Virus record (IMG/VR): IMGVR_UViG_3300025133_000049
Coordinates: 30,788-94,787 of that record
DNA length: 64,000 nucleotides
From: a virus
Reading direction: 5' to 3' (one strand)
Shown in pieces: positions 27,201 through 45,427 of this stretch. Below the pieces are notes generated by a model. It saw only the letters and a program-made list of their open reading frames with translations, was not told where the DNA came from and did no database searches. Within the stretch, counting starts at the first letter, position 1, and each line of letters begins with the position of its first letter. The position numbers and the translations under genes are program-made.

Positions 27201-27336
27201 CATGGCTCAAGGAATGCAAGATATAGCTAACATCGGAGCGGTTAGACGTAAAGATTCTCAGATGGAAGCTAACCAAAACATGATATTAAAGTACATTAAA
27301 TCTAACCGTCCGTTTGATACTGACGATTTAGGATAA
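24277..27336 (+). CDS. ejected cargo protein with glycine-zipper TM region and phage tail lysozyme domain
   Basis: GAAAGAKAGGMFGPWGQLIGGVAGG; EVERDE..GKPHEMGG; lysozyme-like GFSEQSALGVIANLAWET..GIAMWT..QLDYLLHE..FEGP (~25460-25890). Confidence 0.8.
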   Translation: MGKFADFTDKTKGFIEGQEGGIGGIADNVMGVVGQATKMIDDVKTPLGERMDRRGNITHEVDAAGNVMGGAAAGAKAGGMFGPWGQLIGGVAGGIGGGIASILDQNAQPDMLDQDSRYQQFMLENQVSTIRPEAAFAQQQQMAENGLDVKGNTKQIEVERDEIVLRKVGKTFRKVADFKGGKPHEMGGEQFVAEEGDIIFPGKDRRRITNLVNNKRWSAIESARQQLPTDVPTGRAELGFDNTDPIKKKYGQKDVDDINAQGGLSGNMLAQDGGSDVMNRLLKKKYEYDPNNAYLGKYGDSYADAEGFATKGGGMYKTQDGYITPSGNRTYNAADTKNYLKKIAELPENKDRTIMYKDSKGSEPFRQYSKQYAEGTKGIKTGSAGPAKDGIEDKIYSRLRKEGFSEQSALGVIANLAWETDNFTAWEEYKENIYGTKGGGIAMWTNNPWTNRRDMYDSWMKENNKDVLNVDHQLDYLLHEIYNVKENMATGKRFKIDKLKKMDSIAGAADYFMKGFEGPTDQSKEHLQKRLNLIANFTPEKLTEAKSELAQIKKDKPLVTKQDVKGFVKQAKDVVKGIFEAGGNSNKERIKAMQKAGYSEEEIQQAEGPESKSILAEINEAGGNSNKARIKGMQKVASTPYDEDGLNQDLLGRMRRSQKDGLAADKARTSENRRILSDTIKKYIVNDGTKLKILKDILAGGPMGINAASVPTNIIADIYEGEMRKGNIDKSFDEAFPDAEETPAPTNPQNSWEIPSGMSTGDAADALGINSIPERTAHEEQSVIPHIKKAGTIAGYEPTTGSGAELPAGATTSTGEQAVVNAQIGKTTESIKSGASMLGGAFESLAAYAPAIYNLAKGSEKAEKVNRNYVNPMMRSFQDRGQADRNEIDKAFRQSMASARNLSGGSQGNYRSNLEQAWANKIDRNAQVNTREASRADQVAAGNVAAINQADQINTQMENKADIMDMQSQSATDSFMAQGMQDIANIGAVRRKDSQMEANQNMILKYIKSNRPFDTDDLG

Positions 27337-27349
27337 AACAATATAAGAT

Positions 27350-28927
27350 ATGGCATCATTATTTGACAAACCAGTAGCAGCTAACCCGCAAAGTACCTTT
27401 GCTGCATTACCATTACAGTATATATCTCAATCTTTAGATAGGAGACAAGCTCAGTATGAACAAAACAAAGCTCAAGTGGAAGCTCAGAGAGACGAGTTCC
27501 TTAGTACTAGAGCTGTGGCTGGTGATGTAGAAAGACAACAGGCCCTTATATCCGAGTGGGATACTAAGCTAGATGATATGATAGAAGCTGCTGATGGAGA
27601 TTACTCTAGAATCAGAGGAGGTATAGATAGAATGACTAGGGATATTAAGCAAGAAAAAGCTTATGGTGAACTAGGAGCTATCGATAGGAACTTCAAAGGT
27701 GCTGTTAAAGACAGAGAAAACTTAGATAAGTTGTATCAAGCAGGTAAGATTAGTGAGGCTGGATACAATAAAGGGCTCAGTGCAATGCAAAACTTTAAAA
27801 CTACATTGGGGGATAACCAACAATGGAGTACGTATAGAGGGTATATGCCAAGTAATATTACAGATGTTCAAAAGAAATTAAGCGATGTAGTAGATGAAAT
27901 CAATGCTAAGTATGATGAATCAGGACAAAAGTATTTAAGTTCTGAGGATGCACAGACAGCACTCACAGGAGCAGTCAAATCTGACCCAGGTATTCTTAAA
28001 GCAATGCAAGAGAACTGGGAAGCTTTAGGATCTCAAGGAACATTCGGTGAATATTATAATAGTACATTAGGTAATGTTATAGCTAATAAGAAGTATCATC
28101 AAGTTCTTACTAAAAAAGAAGGTGGTGGAGAAGGATCAGGTGTAGGTCAGATACTTACAAATGTAACTATGCCTAGTAGAGGAGGTAGTTCTTATACCGG
28201 AGGTAGTGCAAGTAGCCTTAAAGCAATAGTCCAAAGTGTTTCAGGAAGAGATACTTTCAAAGAATTCAATGATTGGAGAGGATCTGAGCAAGGTAAATTA
28301 GATATTAAATGGATAGAAGCTAAAACAAAAACTGATATGCCTAAGAATCCTTCTGATGCTATTGATTGGATAGAGGATCATTTAGAAAAAACATACACAG
28401 CTAGCGTAGAAACAGAGGTAGTACCTAAACATTTACGAGGTAAAGTCATTAGTGACAAAGGTGAGATACTTACTCACGGTGCCTGGTACAATTCAGCAGG
28501 TGAACTTATTGATGCAGTCGACATTGAGGACCTACAAGGAGAAACTGAGGACGGTAAAGTAACTCAAGTTCTAGGTGTAGTTAAATCAGGTGGGGCATAT
28601 CCTAAAGGAACCTATCATATATTAGGTAAAGATGGTGAGGAGTACTTCCAAGAACCTACAGATGTTAGAACACTTAGTAGTCCTGAATATGTTAAGAGTG
28701 TAATCAACACTGCTAAGCATGCACCAACCGGATCATCCACTGCAAATTTAAGTAGGGGTTTGATAGGTAATGATGGAAGTATGATTATTCAACCTGGAAA
28801 TTATGAAACAAGAGCGTCAAGTCAAGGAAAAGGCGTAGCTTTGTATCAAAATGGAGAATTGATGTATGTACTTCATGCAACTCCTGATGCGACTGGTAAT
28901 GATATTACCGATTATACTCAACAATAA
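27350..28927 (+). CDS. ejected cargo protein (coiled-coil)
   Basis: 525 aa; STFAALPL N-terminal motif; no Cys; synteny. Confidence 0.7.
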   Translation: MASLFDKPVAANPQSTFAALPLQYISQSLDRRQAQYEQNKAQVEAQRDEFLSTRAVAGDVERQQALISEWDTKLDDMIEAADGDYSRIRGGIDRMTRDIKQEKAYGELGAIDRNFKGAVKDRENLDKLYQAGKISEAGYNKGLSAMQNFKTTLGDNQQWSTYRGYMPSNITDVQKKLSDVVDEINAKYDESGQKYLSSEDAQTALTGAVKSDPGILKAMQENWEALGSQGTFGEYYNSTLGNVIANKKYHQVLTKKEGGGEGSGVGQILTNVTMPSRGGSSYTGGSASSLKAIVQSVSGRDTFKEFNDWRGSEQGKLDIKWIEAKTKTDMPKNPSDAIDWIEDHLEKTYTASVETEVVPKHLRGKVISDKGEILTHGAWYNSAGELIDAVDIEDLQGETEDGKVTQVLGVVKSGGAYPKGTYHILGKDGEEYFQEPTDVRTLSSPEYVKSVINTAKHAPTGSSTANLSRGLIGNDGSMIIQPGNYETRASSQGKGVALYQNGELMYVLHATPDATGNDITDYTQQ

Positions 28928-28938
28928 AAGATATTACT

Positions 28939-31900
28939 ATGGCCATAGATCAAGATGCTACTAAAGATTTAAAGATGATTAACCCGGAACCGTCTCCAAG
29001 TGATTCGGCTTTTGAGGCCATGTTTGATTCAGCAAAGAGAACAGGAAGTTCTAGACCTGTTCCTACAAGTGCAGCCGCACAACAGAAAGCTATTAAAGGA
29101 ATGCAAGCAGATATCTTCTTTGATCAATCAGTTCAAGAGGGTAGTAGAGATCAGAAGCTAGATAAGTATGCTTCTTCTTTCGAAGATAAGAATGCAACCC
29201 GAGCTAGAAACCAAAATGAAGCTATCAAAGGTATCAAAGCTATTGGTGGAGGTTTAATTCAGGGTGGGCTTATCGTAGGTGAGCAGTTAGGTTATGTAGC
29301 AGATCTAAAGAATACTGCCAAGATGTTCAGTGATGCTGAAGATATGTCAGGTAACTGGTGGTCTAACATGTTTAGAGATGCTCAAGATAGTTTGAGAGAA
29401 TCTGATACGTTTAAAATTTACGAGAGTGGTACTGACGAGAACAGTATCCTATCTCAGATATTCAAGTGGAGTTCATTAGAGGGAGCTATCTCGTCCGCCG
29501 TAGGATTCGGTGTATCAGGATTAGGGGCAGCTTCCGTTGTTTCTAAGCTAGGTGCTTTAAAACAATTTGGTAAATTAGCGGCTATGACTGATAAGGTCAT
29601 GGGTAATGTTGCAGCTCGAGGTTTAACTGGGGTCAAAGCAGCTAAGGCTATGCAAGGTGCTGTAGGATCAACAAGAGCGTTTACAGGTCCTCTAGCATCT
29701 TCAGCTATGTCTAACTTCTATATGGGTCAGTTAATGGCTACAGATACATACACTCAATCAATGGATGCCATTAGAGGTAAGATTGATTCAGGTGAGATAT
29801 CTGAATTAGATGCTCAGAAGATAGCAAATGAAAATGCAAAGAATGTAGTTGGATTGAACATGGCTTTGGCCACTACTTCTTTCCTACGATTTGGTAGTAT
29901 ATTTAAAAGAGGTGGTAGACTAAAAGGATTGGTAAAGGATCCTACTGCAATGGCGCAGTTAAAAGATATGGTTATCAAAGGTTCTCCTACAGCATTCGGA
30001 GAAAACGTTTACCAGGAGATGATTCAAATGGAACAGATCTACAAGACTTCATTAGAAGCCGGCGTAGCATCTAAGTATGGTTCTGGTTATTGGGATAGAA
30101 TGACTCAACTAGCTTTATCTAATCGAGCAATGCATGCAGGTGCTCTAGGTGTAGTAGGTGGGCCTATCCAATTTGCTATTATCCAAAAGCCTTTGATGAG
30201 AGAACAGCACAAACAACAAAAAGAAACGTTTGACAATCAACAAGCCTCCCGGAAGTATCACGCTACTATGGTAGAGAATTTAGTTAAAGGTGATATGACT
30301 GCTTTCATGGAGTTCGACAAAGCTAGAAACGAAGCCATCATTGCTGGTGACTTTGAAGCAGCTGCTCTTGCAGAAGATATGGGATTGATTCGTGAAGTAG
30401 TTAAGTCAAATGAATGGGGAACAATAGATTACCTAAGACGAGATATAGAAAATGAATTAAAGCACAAAGAAACTCCAGAGGGATACGATGCTAACTATAA
30501 AGAAAATGGACAGAGAGCATTAGAGATGTTGGACAAGGTTGAAAGTTATAACTATGCATATAGTCAGTTTGAAACTAAGTCAGATTTAATCTATACAAAT
30601 TTAGCGATAGATGCATTGAACTCGAAGAGAGTAGAGAACAATCAGAAACTTGTAGCCTCTGCGCAACAGGTTCAAGCCATGGCTGTACTAGAAGGTGTTG
30701 AAGTTAACTTCGATACTGACACAGGTAGGTTTACAAAAGTAAAGAGAGATAAGAATAGATTCGAAGGGTTATCAACTAAAGAAGCAGTAGCTCAAAGAAA
30801 CCTCGAGAAGACTCAGGACAAAGCTTATGACAAGTTCATGGAGAAGGCTGAGGATATAACCGGATACAAAGATGCAATCAAATCTGATGTTAAGTATACA
30901 AACTTAGGTCAGAAGTTATTAGATAAGTATTCTTATTTAAAAAGTGATAAGGCTCAAGAGAAGGCCCTCAAGATGAAGAAGGATCAGTATGATAATGCTA
31001 AAGAGAATATCAAAAAAGCTGACGCTGAAGATAAAGCTGCAGCTACTGAAAAGAAAAACTCAGGCTTAACTCCTTTCTCAGTTGTTAAAGCAAGAGCTAA
31101 TAAAGAAACTGCTGAAGAGAAGGCGGTTAGAACTAAAGCTTGGGATGCTGAGGTGCAAGGTGTTAACACTCCTAGAGAGGGAAACACATTTACATCTAGA
31201 GATCAACAAGGTGTATCTAGACTTTATAGTAAGGGGGATATGTTGAGATCTAATGATGGTAGATATTTTAAAGTAGATACTCAAGCCGGCGCTGCTAAGA
31301 ATGCTAACCTAGCATCTTATGCTATGCCATTGGTATATGAAGTTACAGCTGAAGGTAAGAAACCTGGAGGTAAAGAGGATAGATGGATTAGATTTATTCC
31401 AGAAGATAATACATTCTTCAGACCAGAGGTTAAACAAGCTCATTATAATAGCAAAACTAAATCTTGGTATCATAAAGGTAACACACCTTTTGCCCCTTAC
31501 GTAGATGTTGACTCAGCTTTTAAACCAAACAATGAGTTAGCTCAGGAAGCTAGAAGACAAAAAGCTGCAGATGGTATTGCTTTAAGTGTAAATAATTTTG
31601 AGTTAGAAGCTAACCAACCAGGTGAGGGTCAACAAATTGTTGAAACAGAAATGGCTGCGGAGTATGACTTGAAGTCTTTGAACAATCCGTTGTTCCCAGG
31701 TGAATCCTATGAAGTTACTTTTAAATTAAATAAGCAACCTAATGGACAAACATTTGTTGATGTTTATAGAGGAGATAGTAAACTTACAAGATTAGATAGA
31801 CACTCTAACTTAAATCATCAAGTGATAGCACAAGCTTTACTTAAAGGTGAAGTTGCGGGATCTGTTATAGGTCACTACAGTAGTTCTAACAATCTGGTTA

Positions 31901-34900
31901 AACTTAGAAATGAAGATGGTACTTTTGTACAAAGTAGTATAGCTGAACTATCTAAAATGGATTCTAAGTATCTAGTTAACGGTAAGGTTCACTTTGCTAT
32001 CAACCCAGGAGAGTATGCTCAGAAAGAACCTGTAACGATGGCAGAAGATGGTACTATCATTACAGATAACAGAATAGAGCATACAGATGCAGATGGCGTT
32101 AAACATTCATTGAGCATTCCATATAGTTCTATGAAAAGTCCTGGAGATACTTACATGTTAATCATAGGGCCAGGTGGTCATATTATTCCTATAGCAACTA
32201 GAGGTAAGAAGCTAGCTGAGCTTGATAGTATGTCAGGAGAAGGAACTAGAGCTGATGATATAGTTAAAGAGGTTGCCCAGGTAACAGAAGAATTCATCAC
32301 AGAGGATATGTTAGAAGGTATGTCTGAATCTGAGTTCGATACAAACCTCAGAGCTACAATAGCTGTATCAAATAAATCTAGTCATGAACAAGCTCAAGAA
32401 TTTAGAAATCAAAAGATAGCTAAGCTTGATGAGCATTGGAGAGATTTCTCTAAGAAGATGGAGGAAACCATTTATCAAACAATTAAAAAGGACGGACGTA
32501 AGTGGAACTCTATAGGAACTACTCAGTCTGGTGAAAACATTTATCAAGCTACAGAATCCGGAACTAGAATTGTTAATCCTAACATGTTTAAGATTGGATT
32601 GTATGTAGATGAAAATGGAAAGTTCACTCCACAAATTCAAGAAGGAACTGGAACTACTAAAGTAAACTATACAAACCTATCTGAATCTGCTACTGAATTT
32701 ACATTAGCATTAGGAGATCGATTTGATAAAATAAGTTATGACAGATTCCTAGATTCGGGAGATGCTGCTACAAACAAAACTAATGCGGAGTATATATTAA
32801 ATGAATCCGGATTATCTACTGATTTAAATATCAGAAGACCTTTTGCTGGATCCTCAGCCACTATTAAAGTAGATGGTATGGATATAGCTGTTGAAGGAGC
32901 TGCAGTAGCAGACAAACATTTCACTAAGCATGACAGAGGTTCTATCGAAGCTATAACTAAACCTGCAGACGAAGCATTTAAGAAATCAACTATCGAAGAA
33001 CTAGATACATTTACTTCTTTCGAATCTACAGATGCTGACAGTATTGGTCAGTTGATGGGTGAAGAAGCTGGAGATGCTATATCTCATGTACTAGCATTCC
33101 TTGGAGATCTTGGGTTAGCTAACATGCCTAAAGTCAATAAAGAATTTAAAGACTTTATCAATAAAGAAGTTGAGGTAACTGAATATCAAGACAGTTTAAA
33201 ATATGCTGAGGCCGCTGGTTTCAAAGGGGAGAATGCAGTAATGGCCGCTAAGGTTCATTCATTTCTTACAAACTTAACTGTAGATATTAAAAATAACAAA
33301 CAAGCTTTATTCACAAAGGCTAATCAAAGCATGAGTGAAAAAGAAATTCAATTAGAGAACCATACTTTCAAAAGAGGAGCTCAAGTTTATTCTAAGAAAC
33401 ACGGGAAAGGTACTATTACCAAAACTGTGAAGAATGGTTATTACTTCATGAAGAACTACAAAGGTGATACTAAGAAAGTTTGGGCCGCTGATGTTGTTAC
33501 TTTAGATAGTAAGTACACTGAATTATTTAAAGCTCAAAGAAAACTTGCTAAGATGGATCCAGCAGATACTGGATATAAAACCACTAAAGCAACTGTAACT
33601 AGATTGGAAGCTAAGTATCTTAAACACTCAGCTGTTCCTTCTAATGAAACTGTTAATGATGGACCTAAAGTTACAGCTACTCCTGCAGTTAGTACTAAAA
33701 AGTGGACTACTGGAAGCACCAGTTTAACTATTACAGATGCTCATGATAGAGTTGCTACAGTTATGGCTACCTATGGTGGAATATCTGCAAAAGGTAATGA
33801 ACTAGCTGCTCAAAAGAAAGCCAATGGAGAGAAGCTTGGGTTGACTAGGGATGAAGCTACAAACTTCCATAAGTTATTGGAAGATAATATAATATTCACT
33901 GAAGCTGAATTATTAGATCTAAAAAGAAAAGCTGCTGACTTAGGAGCTAAACACGGCAATGAGGTTCTAGCTAATCAATCTGAGAACTTCATAGCTCTAA
34001 ATGAGATCTATAAAAATATCAAAGCTAACACTGATATGACAAAAGCTTATCCTACTTTACAAGTAGCTAAGGTAAACAAAAGAGGTGTTACAACTAAACT
34101 GAATTATGCTCCTATCTCAATGCTTAACACAGGGTTACCTGAGATGGGATCTACAAAATCTATTACATCTCCGTTTAGTGCTGGAGAACTTGGTGGATCA
34201 TTCAAAGCGGTTACTACAGCTATGCAGAATGTTTTAAAAACTATGGAAGCAATGGAAGCTCTAGAAGCTACCGACGGAGTTGTAACTCCAGCTGAAGTAG
34301 CTCCTTCTGTAGAAACTAAGACAGCACCTGCTGAAGCGCCTGGTAAAAAGATAACTATAGAAACTACACCTAAAGCAGATTCAGTTGCTGATGTATTTAA
34401 ATCAAAAGGATTAAGTCCTGCCTTAGCAGAACAAGTTACTCAGTTAACAGATAATCAACAGTTTGAGTTAAAACAAGCTATGGATTTATTTGAAGGTATG
34501 GAACAACCACTGCCATCTACATTAGAAGAAATTATGGAAGGACCTAAGTTCAAATCTGGGGATGCTGTTACATTAAGTAAAGCAGACTTCCACGCGGAGG
34601 TAGTAGCGGCTAAAGCTATGCTACCACAAGTTCCGTTTAAAGTTGTAGAGAATGTTGTAGCAATGGTAAATAAATATGGTACCAAAGCAATTGGGGCTTA
34701 TCACCAAGGTGTTGTAACTTTAGTTGAAGGTGCTAGAAAAGGTACAGCTTATCATGAAGTATTTCATGGTGTAGCAGATCTTCAATTACGTCCATTCGAA
34801 AAGCAAGCAATTGCTGAGGAGATGGGTTATCAAAAATGGAACTTAGAGTTAGAAGAGAGGTTAGCTGATATGTTTGCCGAGTATGTGGTAAATCATCAGG

Positions 34901-35172
34901 ATACTTCAATAGTAGGTAAGGTTAAACGGTTCTTCCAAGGTTTACTGGATTGGTTTAATGGAACTAGAACTCCTGAACTAACTAGACAGATATTTGAAAA
35001 GACCGCCACAGGTGGGTACGCTTCTTCTACTAGTCTCAATTATTTATCTAATATTGAGAATCATGTAAGAAAGTTTAGTACGATGGATGCCTTTCAAAAT
35101 TCGCTATCTCAAAAAGAATCAGTAACTTTACGGAATCTTATGAACAACAAAAGAATTAAAATAGTTTGCTAA
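28939..35172 (+). CDS. giant virion cargo protein with N-terminal hydrophobic helices and C-terminal zincin metallopeptidase
   Basis: HEVFH (34753-34767) plus downstream EERLAD zincin motif; 2077 aa; directly upstream of the RNAP. Confidence 0.85.
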   Translation: MAIDQDATKDLKMINPEPSPSDSAFEAMFDSAKRTGSSRPVPTSAAAQQKAIKGMQADIFFDQSVQEGSRDQKLDKYASSFEDKNATRARNQNEAIKGIKAIGGGLIQGGLIVGEQLGYVADLKNTAKMFSDAEDMSGNWWSNMFRDAQDSLRESDTFKIYESGTDENSILSQIFKWSSLEGAISSAVGFGVSGLGAASVVSKLGALKQFGKLAAMTDKVMGNVAARGLTGVKAAKAMQGAVGSTRAFTGPLASSAMSNFYMGQLMATDTYTQSMDAIRGKIDSGEISELDAQKIANENAKNVVGLNMALATTSFLRFGSIFKRGGRLKGLVKDPTAMAQLKDMVIKGSPTAFGENVYQEMIQMEQIYKTSLEAGVASKYGSGYWDRMTQLALSNRAMHAGALGVVGGPIQFAIIQKPLMREQHKQQKETFDNQQASRKYHATMVENLVKGDMTAFMEFDKARNEAIIAGDFEAAALAEDMGLIREVVKSNEWGTIDYLRRDIENELKHKETPEGYDANYKENGQRALEMLDKVESYNYAYSQFETKSDLIYTNLAIDALNSKRVENNQKLVASAQQVQAMAVLEGVEVNFDTDTGRFTKVKRDKNRFEGLSTKEAVAQRNLEKTQDKAYDKFMEKAEDITGYKDAIKSDVKYTNLGQKLLDKYSYLKSDKAQEKALKMKKDQYDNAKENIKKADAEDKAAATEKKNSGLTPFSVVKARANKETAEEKAVRTKAWDAEVQGVNTPREGNTFTSRDQQGVSRLYSKGDMLRSNDGRYFKVDTQAGAAKNANLASYAMPLVYEVTAEGKKPGGKEDRWIRFIPEDNTFFRPEVKQAHYNSKTKSWYHKGNTPFAPYVDVDSAFKPNNELAQEARRQKAADGIALSVNNFELEANQPGEGQQIVETEMAAEYDLKSLNNPLFPGESYEVTFKLNKQPNGQTFVDVYRGDSKLTRLDRHSNLNHQVIAQALLKGEVAGSVIGHYSSSNNLVKLRNEDGTFVQSSIAELSKMDSKYLVNGKVHFAINPGEYAQKEPVTMAEDGTIITDNRIEHTDADGVKHSLSIPYSSMKSPGDTYMLIIGPGGHIIPIATRGKKLAELDSMSGEGTRADDIVKEVAQVTEEFITEDMLEGMSESEFDTNLRATIAVSNKSSHEQAQEFRNQKIAKLDEHWRDFSKKMEETIYQTIKKDGRKWNSIGTTQSGENIYQATESGTRIVNPNMFKIGLYVDENGKFTPQIQEGTGTTKVNYTNLSESATEFTLALGDRFDKISYDRFLDSGDAATNKTNAEYILNESGLSTDLNIRRPFAGSSATIKVDGMDIAVEGAAVADKHFTKHDRGSIEAITKPADEAFKKSTIEELDTFTSFESTDADSIGQLMGEEAGDAISHVLAFLGDLGLANMPKVNKEFKDFINKEVEVTEYQDSLKYAEAAGFKGENAVMAAKVHSFLTNLTVDIKNNKQALFTKANQSMSEKEIQLENHTFKRGAQVYSKKHGKGTITKTVKNGYYFMKNYKGDTKKVWAADVVTLDSKYTELFKAQRKLAKMDPADTGYKTTKATVTRLEAKYLKHSAVPSNETVNDGPKVTATPAVSTKKWTTGSTSLTITDAHDRVATVMATYGGISAKGNELAAQKKANGEKLGLTRDEATNFHKLLEDNIIFTEAELLDLKRKAADLGAKHGNEVLANQSENFIALNEIYKNIKANTDMTKAYPTLQVAKVNKRGVTTKLNYAPISMLNTGLPEMGSTKSITSPFSAGELGGSFKAVTTAMQNVLKTMEAMEALEATDGVVTPAEVAPSVETKTAPAEAPGKKITIETTPKADSVADVFKSKGLSPALAEQVTQLTDNQQFELKQAMDLFEGMEQPLPSTLEEIMEGPKFKSGDAVTLSKADFHAEVVAAKAMLPQVPFKVVENVVAMVNKYGTKAIGAYHQGVVTLVEGARKGTAYHEVFHGVADLQLRPFEKQAIAEEMGYQKWNLELEERLADMFAEYVVNHQDTSIVGKVKRFFQGLLDWFNGTRTPELTRQIFEKTATGGYASSTSLNYLSNIENHVRKFSTMDAFQNSLSQKESVTLRNLMNNKRIKIVC

Positions 35173-35173
35173 C

Positions 35174-38100
35174 ATGGCTTGTAAAATAGAAAAAGTATCT
35201 GCAGAGAATGGTAAGGATTCATTATTATATAAAAGTCTAACTGCCAAATACCCGGAATCAATAGCGTTAACCAAGTATATAGATATCATGTCTGAAGCTG
35301 AAGGTAATGCTAAGATATATGGTAAAGATAAAAACGGGGAACCTGTAGCACAAGTTGATGGACCTAAGTTTAAGTTAGCTGAATTTAATTCTTACCAAGA
35401 ACAAATTGACTCAATGGAGTTGATGAGTTCTATGTTAGTTAGTGAATTTGCAAATACATTAAGTATTAAGGACCCATCTAAATTAGCGGGATTTGACTTA
35501 GCTAAACTAGACGGTGATCTAGTGGCTTTATCTGCAGCTGTTGCAAACGTTAGAAATAATTTAAAGCGGATGATGTTCAAAGCTCCTAGAGATGTGCAGG
35601 AGATTTACAAAACTATTATTCTTAATATGCCTCAGTATCTCGAACCTAGAGGCCCTCTTACTAGAAAACTAGCTGAGAGAGGTGTACTAATCAGAGTTAG
35701 AGATGAGTCAGTAACTGATCTTTTAGAACAAGGGTTAGAAGCTGAAAATGGTACAGTTGACTCTGATGTTGTTCGTGTTTCTTATGAGAGAATCTATGAT
35801 ATGGAAACTCTTGAAAGTTCTGCAATGAGATCTATTTCTGAAGAAGTTAAAACTTATATCAGAGGAAAAGAAAAAGTAAATGATAAAGGAGAATCAGAAT
35901 TAAGTTTATTAGGAACTCCAAGGCCAATTGAAGCAGGAGAAGCTATCTCAGATATGTTTACAGTTCTTGCAGGTGTTCAAAATCCTAGTGAAATGTTGGA
36001 AAGATTAGAACAAGCTGTAGGTCTCAAACCTCATCTTATGCCTATCTATTCTGACTTAATGAATGAACAACCTAAGCAGATTAAAGTTAATAATAAAACG
36101 ATAGAATATAAACCTATTACTGCTCAATTGTTTAGTACATTCGCTAAGCAAGATTATAACATGCACTCTGTTGTAGAAAAGATTGGTGGTGGTGTAATGA
36201 TCACTGCAGCTAATGCATACAATACAAGAAACAATCTTAAAAATAGATGGAAACAACAAACTTCTGATATAGCTCAAACTGATCAGACTAGAAATATAAA
36301 TAAATTAAATTCTTATACCAATCGAGCTGATTTAAATAGAAAGCTTAGACAAGGTAACAGTTTAGCATTAAAATCTACAGCTGCTTATATGAGAGCTGCA
36401 GGTTTTCATAATGTTACTCCAGCTATCTTAAAGGATATCGTAGATACATTCAATACAAAATCACAACCACCAGCATTTAAAAATCAAAGTGCGGGAGCTG
36501 TTCTTGTGAACATGCTTAACCTTGTAGCCAAGCCGGCCTTACAAGGAAAGGATATATTTAAAAATGTAGGTGAAACAATGGCTGAGACTAAATACTTAAA
36601 TCTCTTAGCTGAACATTCTACAAAATATGAAACAGATGTAACTGCAGGAGCCTTTAAAAACTCAGCAGGTAAAACTACACACCCTTTAAATAAAGGGTCA
36701 GAAGCTCAAGATATATGGTTAAGATTGAACAGGGATACAAAGTATGCTAATCAGTTCTTAAATGATCCTATGTATGAGAACACTAAAATATTAAATACTT
36801 TATTTAGTAATCCAGAAGGATTAAATGTAACTTCATTCTCTACATTGAGTAATGAAAGTGTAACTAACTCTGGTGTAGCTTTTGGTCAGTTATCTAATTA
36901 TGATGCGATCAATCTTAAACTGAATAGTTACTTCCAAGGTAAAGATTCATTCCATGCATATGGGCCAACACAAGCGGATAGAGGAAATATTAGTGCTTTA
37001 GTTTTACCTAAGATTTCTCAAGATGAAAAGATATTTGATCAGAGTGGTACAGTAATATCACCTGATATTAAAGAGTGGGTTTTCAATCAAGTCAAAGGTG
37101 AACTACAAAGAGTATTAAACACTAAAGATTCCGGCTATAAAAATCATAATAAAAACTCTCAGATGTTTAATTTATTTGAAGGTTTAAATGAGATATTTAA
37201 AGCGGAGGATGTGAACATGTCTAACATCGATCAGTTGGCCACCAGGCTAGCTGTGACAGCAGAACAACATCTTTATGCTGCAATACAAAGCGACATTGCA
37301 TACATGGCTAAGAAGGGAGTTATAGAGCTCGACGTATCTGGTGGAGTTAGATCATATAAATTAACTAATGATGCAATTGTAAGTGATAACGCGCACTCAA
37401 AGGGGAAGATCACCAATAAAGCGCTTAACGAGTTCTTGGTGAATAATTTTATTTACACATACGAACAAACATTATTCTACGCAGGTGACCCTGCTTTCTT
37501 TAAAGGAAAAGTAGATATGAACAAGAGGATGGGATTAGCCTTTACTCCAGGTGAAAAAGTAACAGTAGGTGATGCTACAGGTATAGGACCAACAGCTAAA
37601 ATTAAAATACTTCAGGAAGCTGAGATGAAGTCTGAGATGGCCGAAGTATATAAAGAACTGTTAGGAGAAAAAGCTGGTAAGGCTTTCTTACAAACAGAAG
37701 TAGCCGATGGTGCTGGTTTTGTTAGCTTAGATCGATATGGTGACCTTGCTTTAAGTAGAGGTAAACACTCTATAGCTATGTTAGAGTATATTGATGAGAT
37801 GAGCAGATGGGATCCTAAAAAACCTATGCCATCAACAGAAGCTGTTCTAGAAGTATACAAAGGATTCTATTTTAGATTACATGCAGATGAAACAGGTGTG
37901 AGACCTTTTAACTTAAAGTATTCTACACTCCCAGTATTCCCTGCATTCTTTGAACAAACTAAAGCAGATGGATCACTCAAGTACCCAGGTATGGCTAAGA
38001 TATCACAAGAACTTAGAAGTGGTAGAGCTGATGAAGTTGTAATGGGTTCTGCTGTAAAAGTTGGTGGATCTAATTTTGCAACATTAGAAACTCTAGCTGG

Positions 38101-41100
38101 AACAGAAGCTACAGTAATATACAATGAATCATACAGGTTCCCACAGGATTCTCCAACTAAAGATAAAACTGAAGATAACTTCGGTTCTCAGATGAGAAAA
38201 CTTATAACATCTAATCAAACTCCTGCAGGTAAACTGTCCGTGTTTGGTGAGACTGTTAGTGAAGGAGCTAGTATAGGATCATACAATGATGCTATTACTA
38301 AAATAGTAGGTAATGCTGCGACCAGGTTAAATAAAAGATTCCTCAATGGGGATTCTGCACCGAAAGTTGCTGAGCCTATGACCATGGAGAAAGCTAAGGC
38401 TACTCTTGAGAAAGTTCAAAAGAACACAAAGTTTATTAAACTTGAAGATGATGGTAGTGGGTATGTGAATACTAAAACAGGAAAACGTTACCAAAGAGTT
38501 ACAGAGTTTATATCTACCAAGGAGACTAAGATGAATGATGTCTTAAAATCTGCAGTTAACATCGGTAATAAATTGGATGTATTAACTAGGGATTTCTTTG
38601 ATGGGAACTTAAAAAGTGCAAAGGAATATGATGTTGCAGACTCACATATAGTTAAAGGTTATGTTAACCAACTCAAGGAAGTGAAAGCATTCATGGATAA
38701 GAGAGGTGAGGTGGTGATGGCTAATGATATAGTTTTATATAATGACGAGATAGGTGTTGCTGGTACCGTGGATTTAATCACATATGATAAAGATGGTGAG
38801 GTGAGAATCTACGATATGAAGACTATGAGAGGTAATCAACTTACAGAATCTTATGCCGCAGACCCAACTGTTTCTAAATATGATACTACTGTTTATGGAG
38901 ACTCGAACAGAGAGAAGCATAGAAAACAGTTAAGCATGTATAGAATATTGCTTAATAATACTCATGGGATTAAAGCTAAGGAAACGGCTATTATTCCAAT
39001 TGAGGTTATGTATAAACAAGGGGAAACTAGAACTAGTAGAATGAATCTACTTGATGGTATTCCAGTAAAACCTTTATCTAAAGTAGGGGAAGCTGAATTG
39101 ATTAATCTTGATCCAAATAAAGGGTATCATAAAGGAGAACTTAATACAGCTGAACTTGTTTCTAGTATCCTAGATAGTGCTGAAGCTAGTGGTTTTGTAA
39201 ACTTAGATTACTTCTTAGAAGCATTAACAGTTAAAGATGGTGAACTTACTTTACCTTTAAATTATCCTACGATTAAATTTAAAACAGATAGTTTAATTAA
39301 CTCTGCTTATAAAAAAGGAGCAGGTAGAATTAAATTAGCAGGACACTCTGCAGTACAGGTATCTAGTTTAGGTATGGTGGCCAATAAGGGGGAGTTCTCT
39401 ACAGATAGTGATTTAAAATTTGTTAGATTTTCTAAAAAAGGAAGTAACAAAGAATTGAGTCAACTTGATTCTATGGAGGTTTCCAGGAGAATTAGAGCGG
39501 GAGAAGATGTATCAGGTGAGTTTAAAACATTACCGGCACAAGTTAGAGTTAGCCCTAAGTTCTTCAAGAACAAACTTAAAGAGATTGCTAAAGGTAGAGT
39601 TAATAAAGCGGCCATTGGTGAAGCTTTGACTGGGTATAGAAATCATCTTAAAGAATCTGGATTATCTGAAGCACAGAAACAAAATAAGGTTAAAGCATAT
39701 GAAAGTTTCTTAAACAAAAAAGAAGCAAAGAAAGCTTATGATAAGTTAGCTAAAACTTTAAAAGATGATAAAGGTAATTGGGATGCATCTAAATTAGGAG
39801 AAGTAGCAGACATAGTTCTATACAGAATTCCTACACAAGCAAAGAACTCAATGTTATCGGGTACGATAATTGGTTTCCTTCCAGAAGAGTCTGGGGCGAC
39901 TATCCAAGTGCCATCTGAAATAGTTGACCAAGCCGGATCGGATTTTGATATTGATAAGGTTTATATTGAAACAACTGATTTCAATGTTAGTGAAGGACAA
40001 ATCAAAAGAGTTATGCCAGACTTTAACGAGTATGGTGAATTAGGAGAGAACAGTGACAGACAATTGAAAGCTTATATTCAAGAGTATCATAAAGCTGTTT
40101 TAAGTTCTACAAATCATGTAAGTGAATTAATGACGCCAAACGATACTATTGTCCTCAGTAAACTTGTAGAAGAGTTTAATATGGGTGATGATGTATTCAA
40201 CGGTAACTGGGCATCATTAGCATTACAAGAAACATTTAGATCTAATAACAAAGCAGGTAAGGAAATGATTTCTATTTCATCTGTAGCATCTGTTGCACAT
40301 GCGATAGCAGAACAATTAGGTGTTGAATCTGTAGGCGATATTAAGATAGCAGGTAAAACCTTAGAGTTAGGTTCTATCTTAAATTCTGATGGAACTAGAA
40401 TATCTGATGAGATAGGTGAGATACAAAATGCTGCATTGGATAATGCAAGAGATCCTCTATTAGGTAAATTAAATATTGACGCATTTACAGCATCAGTTGT
40501 TATGTTGTTAGTATCTGCAGGACATGGTTTAAAATATGCAGCCACTGTAGTTAATGATCCTATCATCAGAGATTTAGCTAGTGAATATCAAAAACACACT
40601 AGACATTCATCTCCTAGGATAGCTTATGAAACTGCTGTTGCAAATGTTAAAAAGAGATATGCAATTAGAGGTAAGCTTCCTAAAGTTAAGCTTGCTGATT
40701 ACTCTTTAGAGAATGCTGAGAACAATAGAGTAGATCAATCAGTAGAAGCTAGAAAAGAAGCTTTAGTTGTATTTGACGAGTTAAAGAAAATTGGGGATAA
40801 ATTATCTAAGTTCCAAACATCTTTGAACTTTGATTCTAAAGGAACTCCTTCTACGTCTCACGGTTTAGTATCTAAAGCTGTAGATATTGCAAGTGTACCT
40901 GGAACTTATTTAAATACAATGACATTGAATGGTGTGGGTCCACTAGCTGAGATAGGATTAACTCAAGAAATTAAAGATGCTGATTCTTTATTTAAAGTAG
41001 ATCCGGATTTATATGAAACCTCTCAGATAGGTGCCTTTGAAAAAGGTGTTATCATCGATCCATTAATAGTGAATAGAAAGATTTCAGTAGCTGCTTCTGT

Positions 41101-42322
41101 AGTTGGAGCCGATATAGTTAAACTTGCTAGATCATTAAACATATTTGATGAAAACGGTTTGACACATGTATTCAATGAGTTCGATACTTTCTTATTACAG
41201 AACCCTGTTGCATTCAAAGATAGTTCTACTGACATAGCTAATATGACTAGTTCTGAATTAGCTTCGTTAACAGATCCATCAAGTGCATTATCTCCTTCTA
41301 ACCTTCTAAGGTCATATAGAGGTAATCTTAAAGAGGGTGAATTGGAGAATAAGTTCACTAAAGGTTTAGACATAGTTGCAGAAGGTGGTCATGAATATAT
41401 CACGATCAACAATAATTTATCTGTAGGTATGACTCCTGAAGGACAACAAGAAGTTATGGTATTCTTCGAAGATTTAATGGCTTCTGATAATACTGCTGAA
41501 GCAACTCTTGCTAAGCAATTAACTAAGTATGCATTAGCTGTTAGTGGTTATTCTAAATCATTCTCAAGCTTTATGCACTTACTTCCTCCATCAGCTCATG
41601 TTGCTTACACAAATAGTGTAGAGACATTTAGAAATATGGGAGATCAATATGATAATGCTTCTGCATTTCATACTGGGAAGTTCTTAGATATGTATGTTCA
41701 AAATAATGCAGATAGATTAAAAATTCCAGTGAAGAAAGATTTAACTTCATTTGGTGAATTTGAAAAAGCTCCTACATATGTTTTCAAATATATATCTAAA
41801 GATAATAAGCAATTGCATAAATGGTCAAAAGAGAACTTAAGTTATGACAGAATAGGTCAAAGAGGTCTCAAAGGTTTAGTTAAAGAGTATCATGATGGTG
41901 AATCAATGTATCACTCTGATGGTAGTATGGCCCAATTCAACGCTGAAGGAGCTAAGCTTAAAGCTACATCTCAACAGAAAGGTAATATACAATTACTACA
42001 AGCAGAGCTGATGGTGATCAGTGAAGTTATCTCCTCTCTTATGGCAGAGGATATAACTAATGCAGACCAAGCAGCTAAAGCTGTAACTAAAGTACAAAGA
42101 AAACTTATAGAACTATCCGGTAAAGAAGATACCCAGACGTTTAGAGATTTCATTGGTAAACAAGTACCAACCATTAAAAAGTTTGTAGATAAACGAATTA
42201 ATAGAGGTCAAGACATTACTTTCCAAGAAACTTGGAAAAGAAAAATGGACGGTCAAATGGTAGAAACTCTACCTTACGAACCGTTCTTTAGAAAATTAAT
42301 CCAGAAAATAAAAGAATGTTAA
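35174..42322 (+). CDS. virion-packaged DNA-dependent RNA polymerase (phi14:2 gp66-like) with inserted PD-(D/E)XK nuclease domain
   Basis: GSDFDIDK catalytic motif (DFDID 39941-39955); YRIPTQ, DGAGF, KYS, SAVKVG, GSQMRKL and DNARDP motifs; nuclease insert at ~38350-39135. Confidence 0.93.
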   Translation: MACKIEKVSAENGKDSLLYKSLTAKYPESIALTKYIDIMSEAEGNAKIYGKDKNGEPVAQVDGPKFKLAEFNSYQEQIDSMELMSSMLVSEFANTLSIKDPSKLAGFDLAKLDGDLVALSAAVANVRNNLKRMMFKAPRDVQEIYKTIILNMPQYLEPRGPLTRKLAERGVLIRVRDESVTDLLEQGLEAENGTVDSDVVRVSYERIYDMETLESSAMRSISEEVKTYIRGKEKVNDKGESELSLLGTPRPIEAGEAISDMFTVLAGVQNPSEMLERLEQAVGLKPHLMPIYSDLMNEQPKQIKVNNKTIEYKPITAQLFSTFAKQDYNMHSVVEKIGGGVMITAANAYNTRNNLKNRWKQQTSDIAQTDQTRNINKLNSYTNRADLNRKLRQGNSLALKSTAAYMRAAGFHNVTPAILKDIVDTFNTKSQPPAFKNQSAGAVLVNMLNLVAKPALQGKDIFKNVGETMAETKYLNLLAEHSTKYETDVTAGAFKNSAGKTTHPLNKGSEAQDIWLRLNRDTKYANQFLNDPMYENTKILNTLFSNPEGLNVTSFSTLSNESVTNSGVAFGQLSNYDAINLKLNSYFQGKDSFHAYGPTQADRGNISALVLPKISQDEKIFDQSGTVISPDIKEWVFNQVKGELQRVLNTKDSGYKNHNKNSQMFNLFEGLNEIFKAEDVNMSNIDQLATRLAVTAEQHLYAAIQSDIAYMAKKGVIELDVSGGVRSYKLTNDAIVSDNAHSKGKITNKALNEFLVNNFIYTYEQTLFYAGDPAFFKGKVDMNKRMGLAFTPGEKVTVGDATGIGPTAKIKILQEAEMKSEMAEVYKELLGEKAGKAFLQTEVADGAGFVSLDRYGDLALSRGKHSIAMLEYIDEMSRWDPKKPMPSTEAVLEVYKGFYFRLHADETGVRPFNLKYSTLPVFPAFFEQTKADGSLKYPGMAKISQELRSGRADEVVMGSAVKVGGSNFATLETLAGTEATVIYNESYRFPQDSPTKDKTEDNFGSQMRKLITSNQTPAGKLSVFGETVSEGASIGSYNDAITKIVGNAATRLNKRFLNGDSAPKVAEPMTMEKAKATLEKVQKNTKFIKLEDDGSGYVNTKTGKRYQRVTEFISTKETKMNDVLKSAVNIGNKLDVLTRDFFDGNLKSAKEYDVADSHIVKGYVNQLKEVKAFMDKRGEVVMANDIVLYNDEIGVAGTVDLITYDKDGEVRIYDMKTMRGNQLTESYAADPTVSKYDTTVYGDSNREKHRKQLSMYRILLNNTHGIKAKETAIIPIEVMYKQGETRTSRMNLLDGIPVKPLSKVGEAELINLDPNKGYHKGELNTAELVSSILDSAEASGFVNLDYFLEALTVKDGELTLPLNYPTIKFKTDSLINSAYKKGAGRIKLAGHSAVQVSSLGMVANKGEFSTDSDLKFVRFSKKGSNKELSQLDSMEVSRRIRAGEDVSGEFKTLPAQVRVSPKFFKNKLKEIAKGRVNKAAIGEALTGYRNHLKESGLSEAQKQNKVKAYESFLNKKEAKKAYDKLAKTLKDDKGNWDASKLGEVADIVLYRIPTQAKNSMLSGTIIGFLPEESGATIQVPSEIVDQAGSDFDIDKVYIETTDFNVSEGQIKRVMPDFNEYGELGENSDRQLKAYIQEYHKAVLSSTNHVSELMTPNDTIVLSKLVEEFNMGDDVFNGNWASLALQETFRSNNKAGKEMISISSVASVAHAIAEQLGVESVGDIKIAGKTLELGSILNSDGTRISDEIGEIQNAALDNARDPLLGKLNIDAFTASVVMLLVSAGHGLKYAATVVNDPIIRDLASEYQKHTRHSSPRIAYETAVANVKKRYAIRGKLPKVKLADYSLENAENNRVDQSVEARKEALVVFDELKKIGDKLSKFQTSLNFDSKGTPSTSHGLVSKAVDIASVPGTYLNTMTLNGVGPLAEIGLTQEIKDADSLFKVDPDLYETSQIGAFEKGVIIDPLIVNRKISVAASVVGADIVKLARSLNIFDENGLTHVFNEFDTFLLQNPVAFKDSSTDIANMTSSELASLTDPSSALSPSNLLRSYRGNLKEGELENKFTKGLDIVAEGGHEYITINNNLSVGMTPEGQQEVMVFFEDLMASDNTAEATLAKQLTKYALAVSGYSKSFSSFMHLLPPSAHVAYTNSVETFRNMGDQYDNASAFHTGKFLDMYVQNNADRLKIPVKKDLTSFGEFEKAPTYVFKYISKDNKQLHKWSKENLSYDRIGQRGLKGLVKEYHDGESMYHSDGSMAQFNAEGAKLKATSQQKGNIQLLQAELMVISEVISSLMAEDITNADQAAKAVTKVQRKLIELSGKEDTQTFRDFIGKQVPTIKKFVDKRINRGQDITFQETWKRKMDGQMVETLPYEPFFRKLIQKIKEC

Positions 42323-42325
42323 TCC

Positions 42326-45300
42326 ATGGCTACATGTAACATAACAATAAAAGCTAAAGATGGTGAGTCATCTTTCCTTTTCAAAGAATTATTAAACGTA
42401 AGCAACAACCCTGCTAACGCAATAGATCAATATTTCTATACAAGAACTGAAGAGTTTAAAAGAGAATTTGGTGATTGGGAAGCACCTGGGTTTGATAAGT
42501 CTAAATTAGATGCCAGAGGAGAACCTTTGTTCTCAGCTATATCTGATGAAGCTTGGCATTTTGATACAGACTTTGCAAATATAAATCTAGAAGAAGGAGC
42601 AGCTATTTATAAAAAAGTTCTTGATGTAGCTCCTGTATTGATAGATACTCTTGAGACTAAGTTAAAACAACTTAAAGGTTTGAGAAAAGGAACAGCCATA
42701 CTTGCAATTAAACAAGTAGAAAGCTTATTAGAAACTTTGAAGACTGAGGACTTAGCTACAGGTATTCCTAAAGTATTAGCAAGTTCTTCTAAGTACTTAG
42801 CCAGACTTAAAGAGAGAGCTTTAAATAGTGCAAAAAGCGGAACCGACATACGTAAGTTAGCGGGTATTCATAAAGATGCTCAATCTTATAGAATTGTAGG
42901 AGATTTACAAAATCAATTGTTAGGTACATTAGAAGCTTCGGAGATATTCTCTGAGGATCTCTTTGGTTCTATTTCCAGTGTAATGGGAGATATGTTAGCT
43001 ATTGAAAATGTATATATGGAAGTAGCTAAGAAACATTTAGTTGAAGCATTTCATTCACAAGATTCATCTTGGAGTAAGAAGAGTATCAGAGATTGGTTAG
43101 ATCATGCACCAAGGGATACTAAGAAAACTGAAATGGCCCTAGAGTACCTGGGAGATTCTCATGATAGGGTATTATCAGCTACAGCCAAAGCAGTTAAAAA
43201 TGTACAGAATGATGTACGTGTTGCTAGTATAGAATTTAATAAAAGATTAGAGGTAGCTCAGATAGCTTTAGAAAAAGAATCTGGGACTAATAATGCAGAG
43301 AAGATGTATGGTGACATTATCTATAAAGGGAAGGACGGTAGTTTAAAATACCTCAACCCTAACATGGAAGCCACGGACTCTAGATTTGCTCAATTAGAGA
43401 AAGTAAGAACTAGTAAACCAGCCTTATATGATTTCTTAGTATTGTACTCAGATACAATGCAAGAGTTAACAGCAATGACCGGCGCTAAACTAGAAGGATC
43501 ACTCCCTATAGTTCTTAAGGCAGGTAGAGAAAGAATACAAGGACAGAATTTAAAAGATAGATATAAACAATTAGCGGATGATAGTAAAAAATCTTTCCTT
43601 AAGTCTAACCAGGATTTAGAAAAAGGTGAGGTAACTAATGGGGTATACCAGGCTAAGGTTCCGGTATATTATACTAACAAGTATGACTCAGTTGATTACG
43701 AATCTTTTTATAAGGACAAATACAAAGAGTTGATTGAAGGTGGGTTAACTGATATAGCAGCTGATGAACAAGCTGATACATATGCAACATTTAAAGCTAC
43801 TGAAAAGAATGCTGAGTTTGTTAGTAAAGATTTAGCATATAGCTTACAATCATTCCACGCAATGGGAACTAATTATGCTCAAATGGATGCTGTTATAGAT
43901 ACCTTAGATGCGGCCAAAGCTGTGGTAGGTTCTAATCAACGTACATACACCTTGGTTGATTCAGGAGGTAAAAGAATAATGAGAAAGATTAGAGGAGCTG
44001 ATGGTAAAGCATTACCAGAAACAATTGGTGGTCCAGAATCGAATTCATACAAAGCTCTAGAGTCATTCTTAGAAGCTCAAGTATACGGTCAAACAGAAGC
44101 ATATAAAGGTACATTTAAAATAGGTAAACATACGATCGATACAGCTAAAGTGCTACGTAAATTAAATAGCGGAACTAGTTGGGTTCAGATGAGTATGAAC
44201 GTACTAGCATCAGCGGCCAATGTAGGTAACGGCGAGTATAATAACGTTATGGAATCTATGGGTGGTGAGTATTTTAATACTAAAGATTACCGTGCGGGAT
44301 CGAAGTTCTATGCTCAACATTTGTCTGGAGTTCTTAGTGATTTCGCAGAGAGAACACCTAAGAGTTTACTAGGTAATATCATAGAGCACTATGATACTAT
44401 GCAAGACTTCCAGGCTAAAGGTACTATCAAAGGAACTGAAGGTACAGCTGCTAGAAGATTGATTAAATGGGATTTAGCTTTCTTCTTACAAAATGCCGGC
44501 GAACACTTTATGCAAACTAGAGCTGCATTAGCTGTATTCAATAACACTAAGACGTTCAATAAAGATGGAACAGAAGCCGGTACTTTACTTAGTGCACACT
44601 CTGTAAAGAATGGATCATTAGTTATTCAGGATGTATACGTTAAAGGTAAAGATGGTGAGTTAGCTAAGTTCGATAGAGCTGAACAGAATAGAGTAACCAA
44701 CAGAGCACAGGCTATTATTAGAAAGTTACACGGTAACTATAATAAACAAACAGCTAACTTAATGAAGAGAGATGCTAGAACAGCATTACTACTTAAGTAT
44801 CGTGATTGGGCTTATGAAGGTATTGTTAGAAGATATGGTAAGAAACAATACTATGATTCATTAGAACAAGATGTGGAAGGATTCTACAGAACAGGAGCTA
44901 GAGTTCTAGGAGCTCAAGCTAAAGCAATATCTAAATTACAATTGTCTCTAGTTAAAGAAAACTGGGCCAACCTAACTGAACATGAGAGAGCTAATGTACG
45001 TAGAGCTGTAATGGAAATAGCTGCATTAACAGCTTTATCTATAGCAGGAGCTTTAATGGCTCACGCAGGTAAGATGGTAGAAGAAGAATACGACGGAGAT
45101 AGTTTTGGAGATATGGCAGCCAGGGGAACCTTTGCTTTCATGAACTATGAAGTGAACAGATTATTCACGGAACTTGCAGCATATTCTAGTATAGGTGAAG
45201 CACTTAGATTAATGCAAACACCTGCTGCGTCTACCTCAATACTCGAAGGTTCTTATAAACTTCTGGTACAGGCATTCAATCCTACAGAGGTTTATGAGAG

Positions 45301-45427
45301 TGGTTGGAGAAAAGGACAATCTAAACTAGGAAGAAGAGTTGAAGCTTTGACTCCTATTTATAAAAATTTAAATACAATATTTAACAAGGAGGGTATTGAA
45401 GAAAAAGGAATCTTTTACGAGATATAA
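42326..45427 (+). CDS. large ejected cargo protein (downstream RNAP partner)
   Basis: 1033 aa; N-terminal TEEFKREFGDW..DARGEP cassette; hydrophobic C-terminal helices; synteny. Confidence 0.8.
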   Translation: MATCNITIKAKDGESSFLFKELLNVSNNPANAIDQYFYTRTEEFKREFGDWEAPGFDKSKLDARGEPLFSAISDEAWHFDTDFANINLEEGAAIYKKVLDVAPVLIDTLETKLKQLKGLRKGTAILAIKQVESLLETLKTEDLATGIPKVLASSSKYLARLKERALNSAKSGTDIRKLAGIHKDAQSYRIVGDLQNQLLGTLEASEIFSEDLFGSISSVMGDMLAIENVYMEVAKKHLVEAFHSQDSSWSKKSIRDWLDHAPRDTKKTEMALEYLGDSHDRVLSATAKAVKNVQNDVRVASIEFNKRLEVAQIALEKESGTNNAEKMYGDIIYKGKDGSLKYLNPNMEATDSRFAQLEKVRTSKPALYDFLVLYSDTMQELTAMTGAKLEGSLPIVLKAGRERIQGQNLKDRYKQLADDSKKSFLKSNQDLEKGEVTNGVYQAKVPVYYTNKYDSVDYESFYKDKYKELIEGGLTDIAADEQADTYATFKATEKNAEFVSKDLAYSLQSFHAMGTNYAQMDAVIDTLDAAKAVVGSNQRTYTLVDSGGKRIMRKIRGADGKALPETIGGPESNSYKALESFLEAQVYGQTEAYKGTFKIGKHTIDTAKVLRKLNSGTSWVQMSMNVLASAANVGNGEYNNVMESMGGEYFNTKDYRAGSKFYAQHLSGVLSDFAERTPKSLLGNIIEHYDTMQDFQAKGTIKGTEGTAARRLIKWDLAFFLQNAGEHFMQTRAALAVFNNTKTFNKDGTEAGTLLSAHSVKNGSLVIQDVYVKGKDGELAKFDRAEQNRVTNRAQAIIRKLHGNYNKQTANLMKRDARTALLLKYRDWAYEGIVRRYGKKQYYDSLEQDVEGFYRTGARVLGAQAKAISKLQLSLVKENWANLTEHERANVRRAVMEIAALTALSIAGALMAHAGKMVEEEYDGDSFGDMAARGTFAFMNYEVNRLFTELAAYSSIGEALRLMQTPAASTSILEGSYKLLVQAFNPTEVYESGWRKGQSKLGRRVEALTPIYKNLNTIFNKEGIEEKGIFYEI

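Follow-up and report, generated by a model that had tools for sequence, protein, structure and literature searches.

Cysteines confined to facing protein ends mark every break in a split crassvirus RNA-polymerase module and suggest a tail-to-head tether

Crassviruses are the most abundant phages of the human gut, and they pack and inject ~700 kDa of RNA-polymerase proteins. A 64,000-nucleotide stretch of viral DNA (positions 30,788 to 94,787 of IMG/VR virus record IMGVR_UViG_3300025133_000049; hereafter the window) contains three consecutive genes, for proteins that we call A, B and C, whose only cysteines sit on the protein ends that face one another across the two gene boundaries. B is the virion RNA polymerase. 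By comparing this module with its relatives, we found that each polypeptide break in it carries one cysteine pair, and that the pair follows the break when domains or coding strands move.

The three genes belong to a block of seven cysteine-poor genes (24277-47299, + strand) that together encode 7,648 amino acids (aa). Translation of the open reading frames (ORFs) and counting of cysteines showed that the block contains four cysteines, at residue 2077 of A, residues 3 and 2382 of B and residue 4 of C, and none in the interior of any protein. The other + strand genes of the window contain 51 cysteines in 11,394 aa (0.45%), and at this background ~34 cysteines would be predicted for the block (Poisson P ~9e-11). 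If four cysteines were placed by chance, the probability that each of the four facing ends would have one of them no more than four residues away is ~7e-12. The original prediction, made from the letters of the window, had placed four cysteines at these facing termini, and every codon coordinate and terminal peptide that it gave proved exact. Below, a cysteine at the C-terminal end of an upstream protein is called a tail Cys and one at the N-terminal end of a downstream protein a head Cys; junction 1 lies between A and B, and junction 2 between B and C. The features on which the argument turns are as follows.

28939..35172, + strand: protein A, 2077 aa, orthologous to gp47 of crAss001 and g067 of phi14:2 (blastp, hidden Markov model (HMM))
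35167..35169, + strand: Cys2077 of A (TGC), last residue and sole cysteine; tail Cys of junction 1 (translation)
35174..42322, + strand: protein B, 2382 aa, virion RNA polymerase, orthologue of crAss001 gp50 and phi14:2 gp66
35174..35353, + strand: head domain at the N terminus of B, residues 1-60; homologue of the C head (hhalign)
35180..35182, + strand: Cys3 of B (TGT); head Cys of junction 1 (translation)
42317..42319, + strand: Cys2382 of B (TGT), last residue; tail Cys of junction 2 (translation)
42326..45427, + strand: protein C, 1033 aa, orthologous to gp49 of crAss001 and g065 of phi14:2 (blastp, HMM)
42329..42535, + strand: head domain at the N terminus of C, residues 2-70; homologue of the B head (hhalign)
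42335..42337, + strand: Cys4 of C (TGT), sole cysteine; head Cys of junction 2 (translation)

The pattern persists in ~170 proteins from at least three families, at identities of 20-40%. B homologues that are 21-38% identical to the window protein have a cysteine at residue 3 and another at or beside the last residue, often as their only two; among 20 aligned B homologues the columns of C3 and of the C-terminal cysteine are both invariant, and the column of C4 is invariant among six aligned C homologues. A proteins encoded on their own had a cysteine 0-3 residues before the C terminus in 17 of 17 cases, and all 12 standalone C proteins had one at residue 3-5; in both sets it was mostly the sole cysteine. 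In phi14:2, the sole cysteine of g067 is its last residue, Cys1797, g066 has cysteines only at positions 3 and 2179 of 2180, and the sole cysteine of g065 is residue 3. The crAss001 proteins are similar, with a sole cysteine at 2339 of 2341 in gp47, cysteines at 5 and 2404 of 2412 in gp50 and a sole cysteine at 5 in gp49, and DAC15 and Dulem virus 41 obey the same rule. Across breaks, the cysteine lies 0-9 residues from the end of the upstream piece and at residue 3-8 of the downstream piece. The outer ends of the module, that is, the N terminus of A or A+B and the C terminus of C or B+C, had been described as cysteine-free in the window, and they never carried a cysteine in homologues (144 B-core proteins, 17 A proteins and 12 C proteins).

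Gene context was taken from 15 annotated phage records. In these genomes all 19 unfused junctions had both cysteines, as the original prediction had expected, and at 18 of them both lay within nine residues of the ends. In crAss001 and DAC15, gene A (gp47) lies on the strand opposite gp50 and gp49, and since the pattern is nevertheless kept, it belongs to the proteins and not to the gene junction. On the same ground, we rejected stop-codon read-through, translational coupling and a gene-junction artefact as its origin.

A further expectation was that the cysteine pair would be lost where the genes are fused. We searched the C-terminal 999 aa of B against 1.84 billion representative proteins, which returned 150 proteins, and together with an earlier homologue search and the annotated phage records this yielded 144 full-length B-core proteins. 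Their architecture was called without use of cysteines, from the distance between the N terminus and the polymerase core and from the presence of a C-type domain. The counts by architecture were as follows.

B alone (n = 72): N-terminal Cys in 69, C-terminal Cys in 69
A+B (n = 41): N-terminal Cys in 0, C-terminal Cys in 41
B+C (n = 10): N-terminal Cys in 10, C-terminal Cys in 0
A+B+C (n = 21): N-terminal Cys in 0, C-terminal Cys in 0

The pair was thus absent wherever the genes were fused, and 13 of the 21 A+B+C fusions were wholly free of cysteine over 4,400-5,700 aa. Fisher's exact tests gave 1e-37 for the N side and 2e-28 for the C side. Because relatives share traits, we also counted phylogenetically independent contrasts on a FastTree tree of the polymerase core, for the N side after dropping N-truncated rows by a cysteine-independent rule. 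On the C side, ~8 of 9 contrasts were in the predicted direction and none in reverse (p ~0.008); on the N side the figures were ~6 of 7, again with none in reverse (p ~0.03). Annotated genomes illustrate the two intermediate arrangements. Intestiviridae encode A separately from a fused B+C, and here A has a terminal cysteine and B+C begins M-S-C and has no C-terminal cysteine. Suoliviridae encode a fused A+B and a separate C; A+B lacks an N-terminal cysteine and, except in cr273_1, has a cysteine 1-3 residues from its end, and C has one at residue 3-5.

The terminal-Cys rule can be used as a check on the annotation of gene starts and ends in the block. Two annotated B+C genes, in GenBank MW067001 (L003:15801) and NC_055879 (cr110_1; L008:15645), have an in-frame M-S-C 21 and 14 codons, respectively, inside their annotated starts, which are probably too far upstream. 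Translated with table 11, the A+B and C genes of the Suoliviridae cr113_1, cr115_1 and cr273_1 contain 36-80 in-frame stops, and those of cr118_1 and cr1_1 contain none; the in-frame stops are consistent with the known recoding of stop codons in late genes.

The receiving side of the two junctions appears to be built alike. Over their first 60-70 residues B and C are homologous, and the cysteine columns align (hhalign probability 96.8%, E 3e-10), which suggests that one type of receiving head serves both junctions. With the window proteins themselves, blastp of the B head against the C head gave only a nine-residue match (E 0.09) that was not a head alignment. The domains of the module are less fixed than its cysteines. 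In the window and in crAss001 the zincin domain belongs to the tail of A; it lies near the N terminus of B in P0007, P0134 and P0145, and at residue 245 of phi14:2 g065. The break point shifts relative to the domains and the cysteines remain at the polypeptide ends, as if the module were a single virtual polyprotein cut in different positions.

What the module is can be read from its homologies. B matched phi14:2 gp66 (PDB 6VR4; 6vr4_A E 4.5e-22), and blastp also matched crAss001 gp50; positions D1590, F1591, D1592 and D1594 of its DFDID motif were invariant among the 20 aligned B homologues. A matched gp47 (blastp E 1.5e-7), the 2474-aa A protein of Dulem virus 41 (E 3.5e-19) and an HMM of the A N-terminal domain (E 8e-82), and C matched gp49 (blastp E 3e-54) and the C49 HMM (E 4e-190). 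The order of the late block is that of crAss001, with a crAss_MUZ gene followed by two smaller cargo genes (1019 and 525 aa) and then by the module, and B is only 21-38% identical to known members. On this sequence evidence, the window phage is best described as a distant crass-like phage. Virions of crAss001 contain gp45, gp46, gp47, gp49 and gp50, which are regarded as ejected cargo (PMC10172136), and presence in the virion has been shown by mass spectrometry only in crAss001 and phi14:2; by orthology, A, B and C of the window are probably likewise packed in the virion and then ejected. The remaining features of the block and its surroundings are as follows.

20417..24277, + strand: muzzle protein (crAss001 gp44-like), Pfam crAss_MUZ E 4.5e-38, plus crAss_MUZ_C
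24277..27336, + strand: 1019-aa cargo protein with a phage tail lysozyme domain (Pfam Phage_lysozyme2 E 3e-18), 0 Cys
27350..28927, + strand: 525-aa cargo protein, 0 Cys, placed as crAss001 gp46 by gene order
34753..34767, + strand: zincin-type HEVFH motif (HExxH), residues 1939-1943, C-terminal domain of A
38609..39016, + strand: PD-(D/E)XK nuclease-like domain of B, residues 1146-1281 (Pfam, PHROG, blastp)
39941..39955, + strand: DFDID catalytic motif of the two-barrel RNA polymerase, residues 1590-1594 of B
45457-46110 and 46112-47299, + strand: two Cys-free ORFs of 217 aa and 395 aa downstream of C

The muzzle protein, upstream of the cargo block, has six scattered cysteines and thus no cysteine depletion. 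Gene order places the 1019-aa protein as the equivalent of crAss001 gp45, and a family search with the 525-aa protein gave no match. No Pfam or PHROG match was obtained for the 217-aa and 395-aa ORFs, which may encode further internal or ejected proteins. In B, the PD-(D/E)XK or exonuclease-like domain was recognized by PDDEXK_1 (E 3e-4, below the family cut-off), by PHROG 298 (E 6e-16) and by blastp to residues 1709-1946 of gp47. Its homologue in crAss001 and Dulem virus 41 is part of the gp47-like protein. A junction-region megablast against phages, a search of viral contigs for related loci with protein C, and searches of PDB sequences with A and the profile of C gave no matches. An AlphaFold2 model of C had a mean predicted local distance difference test (pLDDT) score of 52.9 and a predicted template modelling (pTM) score of 0.29, with residues 10-70 forming a small helical domain (pLDDT 67-81). 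Foldseek of this low-confidence model against PDB returned nothing at E <= 0.001, and gp26 of cyanophage A4, which is discussed below, was not among the best 50 chains. The genes for A, B and C are tightly spaced: TAA and one further base separate A from B (35170-35176), and B and C are in frame with TAA TCC between them (42320-42328). This spacing fits translational coupling and equimolar synthesis.

The best explanation for these data is that one giant ejected module is here split into A, B and C; it occurs elsewhere as A+B with C, as A with B+C, or as a single A+B+C chain. That the tail Cys and the head Cys pair with each other across the break is, in our judgement, very probable. We infer heterotypic pairing because the junctions are always paired, the outer ends are free of cysteine and A4 offers a precedent, and we extend the inference to disulfide chemistry and to a role in co-packaging or ejection. 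Since systems with one break have two cysteines only, each junction must be self-sufficient. We find it reasonably likely that A, B and C are joined by a heterotypic tail-to-head tether, probably a disulfide. Whether the role of the junctions would be to set the order of ejection, as opposed to co-packaging or stoichiometry, we regard as evenly balanced.

In the mechanism that we propose, the C-terminal tail of each protein would dock on the following protein, at its small N-terminal head domain, and after assembly the facing thiols would oxidize to an intermolecular disulfide in the finished particle. A, B and C would then form one unbranched thread of ~5,500 residues, both in storage and during passage through the narrow tail, and this thread would be the covalent equivalent of the single-chain A+B+C forms and of the virion RNA polymerase (vRNAP) of phage N4. 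On arrival, the host cytoplasm would reduce the bonds and part the proteins. Terminal placement of the cysteines would keep the thread linear, and the absence of any others would prevent loops, branches and mis-oxidation in the periplasm. A broader and more tentative idea, to which we give slightly less than even weight, is that, in the evolution of crassviruses, a peptide bond and a terminal Cys-Cys bond can stand in for each other, so that cuts in the chain are mended by a disulfide, and that a redox-gated ejectosome principle is shared with A4. The original prediction had proposed a head-to-tail disulfide chain for ordered injection; its comparative expectations have been borne out and the A4 structure lends it a precedent, while the disulfide in crassviruses, the ordered injection and the release in the cytoplasm stay at the level of proposals.

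Several observations weigh against a disulfide-linked chain. The case for a bond in crassviruses draws on the sequence pattern and on likeness to A4. Particles assemble in the reducing cytoplasm, and the habitat of gut crassviruses is anoxic and of low potential; given the reducing assembly site, oxidation would have to follow assembly. A simple ban on internal cysteines would likewise remove both cysteines on fusion, so proof of heterotypic pairing needs more than the fusions. Profile comparison found no common motif or homology between the A and B tails beyond the cysteine itself, blastp of the window's A tail against its B tail gave no alignment, and the earlier claim that the tails share a K/I-rich form ending in C is not upheld by any detectable homology. 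The head HMM found a single internal copy in fused proteins, at residues 946-996 of P0069 (A+B), which lack the cysteine, and otherwise picked up no head domain at fused junctions; all other detections were N-terminal (36 cases). The rule has five exceptions among the 72 standalone B proteins (P0046, P0059, P0105, P0131 and P0165), all of them without gene context, and some may have wrong gene starts or ends. Finally, the A+B protein of cr273_1 has its last cysteine 49 residues from the end, the one junction of the 19 in which a cysteine lies so far in.

Other facts bear on what the cysteines could do. The terminal cysteines sit on flexible ends. Recombinant gp66 of phi14:2 transcribes in dithiothreitol (DTT), and they are therefore not needed for catalysis. 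In crAss001 particles, disulfides occur in the tail and at the portal vertex (PMC10172136), so oxidation of particle proteins does take place.

An alternative that keeps the same heterotypic junction has its thiols joined by a metal (Zn, Fe or Cu, with neighbouring side chains as ligands) or by other thiol chemistry. The evidence for pairing is silent on chemistry, acidic or basic residues often stand beside the terminal cysteines, and the reducing, anoxic surroundings in which gut crassviruses assemble and persist would suit such a link. However, no conserved His, Asp or second Cys lies near the terminal cysteines, so that no complete metal site is visible, and A of the window simply ends in its cysteine. 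The only solved junction of this type, that of A4, is a disulfide, and disulfides do form in crAss001 particles. We consider a metal or other thiol link unlikely.

It is also conceivable that each protein pairs with a copy of itself (A-A, B-B or C-C) or is bonded to the portal or inner capsid, and that the ends are used since threading forbids internal cysteines. Selection against internal cysteines would account for their loss on fusion under this reading too, and a cargo protein of the p-crAssphage-like MW067001 has its sole cysteine at 856 of 857 with no obvious facing partner. Yet the outer ends lacked cysteine throughout the 144 B-core, 17 A and 12 C proteins, and the unfused junctions had both cysteines in 19 of 19 cases and never one alone. 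Homotypic links at both ends of B would produce open-ended polymers, and the pairing in A4 is heterotypic. Homotypic or capsid-directed bonding is, in our view, improbable.

The MW067001 cargo protein (L003:4721-7294) is encoded upstream of A; the next protein, also of 857 aa, is Cys-free, and A has no N-terminal cysteine. The protein could dimerize with itself or be joined to another partner. The window counterparts of these smaller cargo proteins (1019 and 525 aa) differ in having no cysteine.

Terminal cysteines might instead have a role that links nothing: they could act as a signal for redox or packaging, be recognized by the zincin protease, or be acylated. The module is never without a zincin-like domain, and some A tails resemble a C-a-a-X box, for example those ending CIAL. 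But the fused forms are free of cysteine at the former junction, so the cysteines are not determinants of polyprotein cleavage; the distance from cysteine to end varies over 0-9 residues with flanks that are not conserved across families, and a signal would not be expected solely as facing pairs. We give such roles very little credence. Chance, or a compositional artefact of very cysteine-poor proteins, could appeal only to the low overall cysteine content of the window (0.45%) and is refuted by the positional probability in the window (~7e-12) and by conservation at 20-40% identity in ~170 proteins, which leaves it practically negligible.

Three narrower candidates were rejected. A four-Cys Zn or Fe-S cluster and an intramolecular bond between the N and C termini of B both fail on the two-Cys systems (A+B with C, and A with B+C), which keep one intact junction. 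Split-intein or Ntn-type processing was discarded as there are no intein blocks and the fused junctions are without cysteine.

We found no thioredoxin gene in the 94.8-kb record of the window phage itself. Intestiviridae have one or two thioredoxin-like genes just past the RNA-polymerase block, on the opposite strand (L003:29484-29762 and 30482-30751; L010:14396-14665), and any link between these genes and reduction of the proposed bonds is speculation.

If the tether is real, it would explain several features at once: packaging of the three proteins at 1:1:1, the order of their exit, the equivalence of split and fused forms, and the purge of cysteines from inside the proteins. A redox-gated coupling of this kind would set the stoichiometry, order and release of injected proteins, and could represent a general, unrecognized design of podophage ejectosomes. 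In the structural work of Bayfield et al., the cargo is not visible in the maps and partial unfolding at ejection was proposed (PMC10172136). The crass literature reads the fused forms as polyproteins that are 'likely cleaved' (PMC10172136; bioRxiv 10.1101/2020.03.07.982082), and a tether, if confirmed, would correct the view that they need cleavage.

Neither the crAss001 atlas (Bayfield et al. 2023, PMC10172136) nor the phi14:2 paper (Drobysheva et al., bioRxiv 10.1101/2020.03.07.982082) mentions cysteines or disulfides in the A, B and C proteins, and full-text literature searches found the terminal-Cys rule in no paper for Crassvirales. The original prediction had said that it was not aware of such an arrangement being described; that holds for Crassvirales as far as these searches reached, but A4 provides a precedent outside them (PMC12002296).

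By orthology, DFDxD motif, gene order and terminal-Cys pattern, the window proteins are like g067, g066 and g065 of phi14:2 and gp47, gp50 and gp49 of crAss001. The nearest structural parallel is cyanophage A4, in which cryo-electron microscopy (cryo-EM) showed that gp27 inserts its C-terminal helix into gp26, where a Cys1715-Cys5 disulfide holds it in place (PNAS 2025, PMC12002296). In the genome of Anabaena phage A-4L, the genes for gp27 (1717 aa) and gp26 (1114 aa) are consecutive, and Cys1715 and Cys5 are the sole cysteines of the two proteins. The crass module resembles this pair in its upstream C-terminal cysteine, its downstream N-terminal cysteine, its Cys-free interior and its nature as a set of capsid-internal ejection proteins. 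Comparison of A4 gp27 and gp26 with crAss A, B and C revealed no similarity (blastp E above 0.3; N terminus of gp26 against the heads, hhalign below 1%), and the likeness is one of mechanism, not of family. A4 also differs in having one junction and not a chain of three proteins, no RNA polymerase and an ordered pentameric ring, and its bond has been described as locally stabilizing, not in terms of a rule that goes with the splitting and fusing of genes. The ejected vRNAP of N4-like phages (Schitoviridae; gp50 or gp71) and the homologues of gp51 and gp52 are almost free of cysteine (PMC11445570). The N4-type vRNAP is a single polypeptide without terminal cysteines, a state matched by the single-chain A+B+C crass forms with no cysteine, whereas the split crass module keeps only the cysteines that face its breaks.

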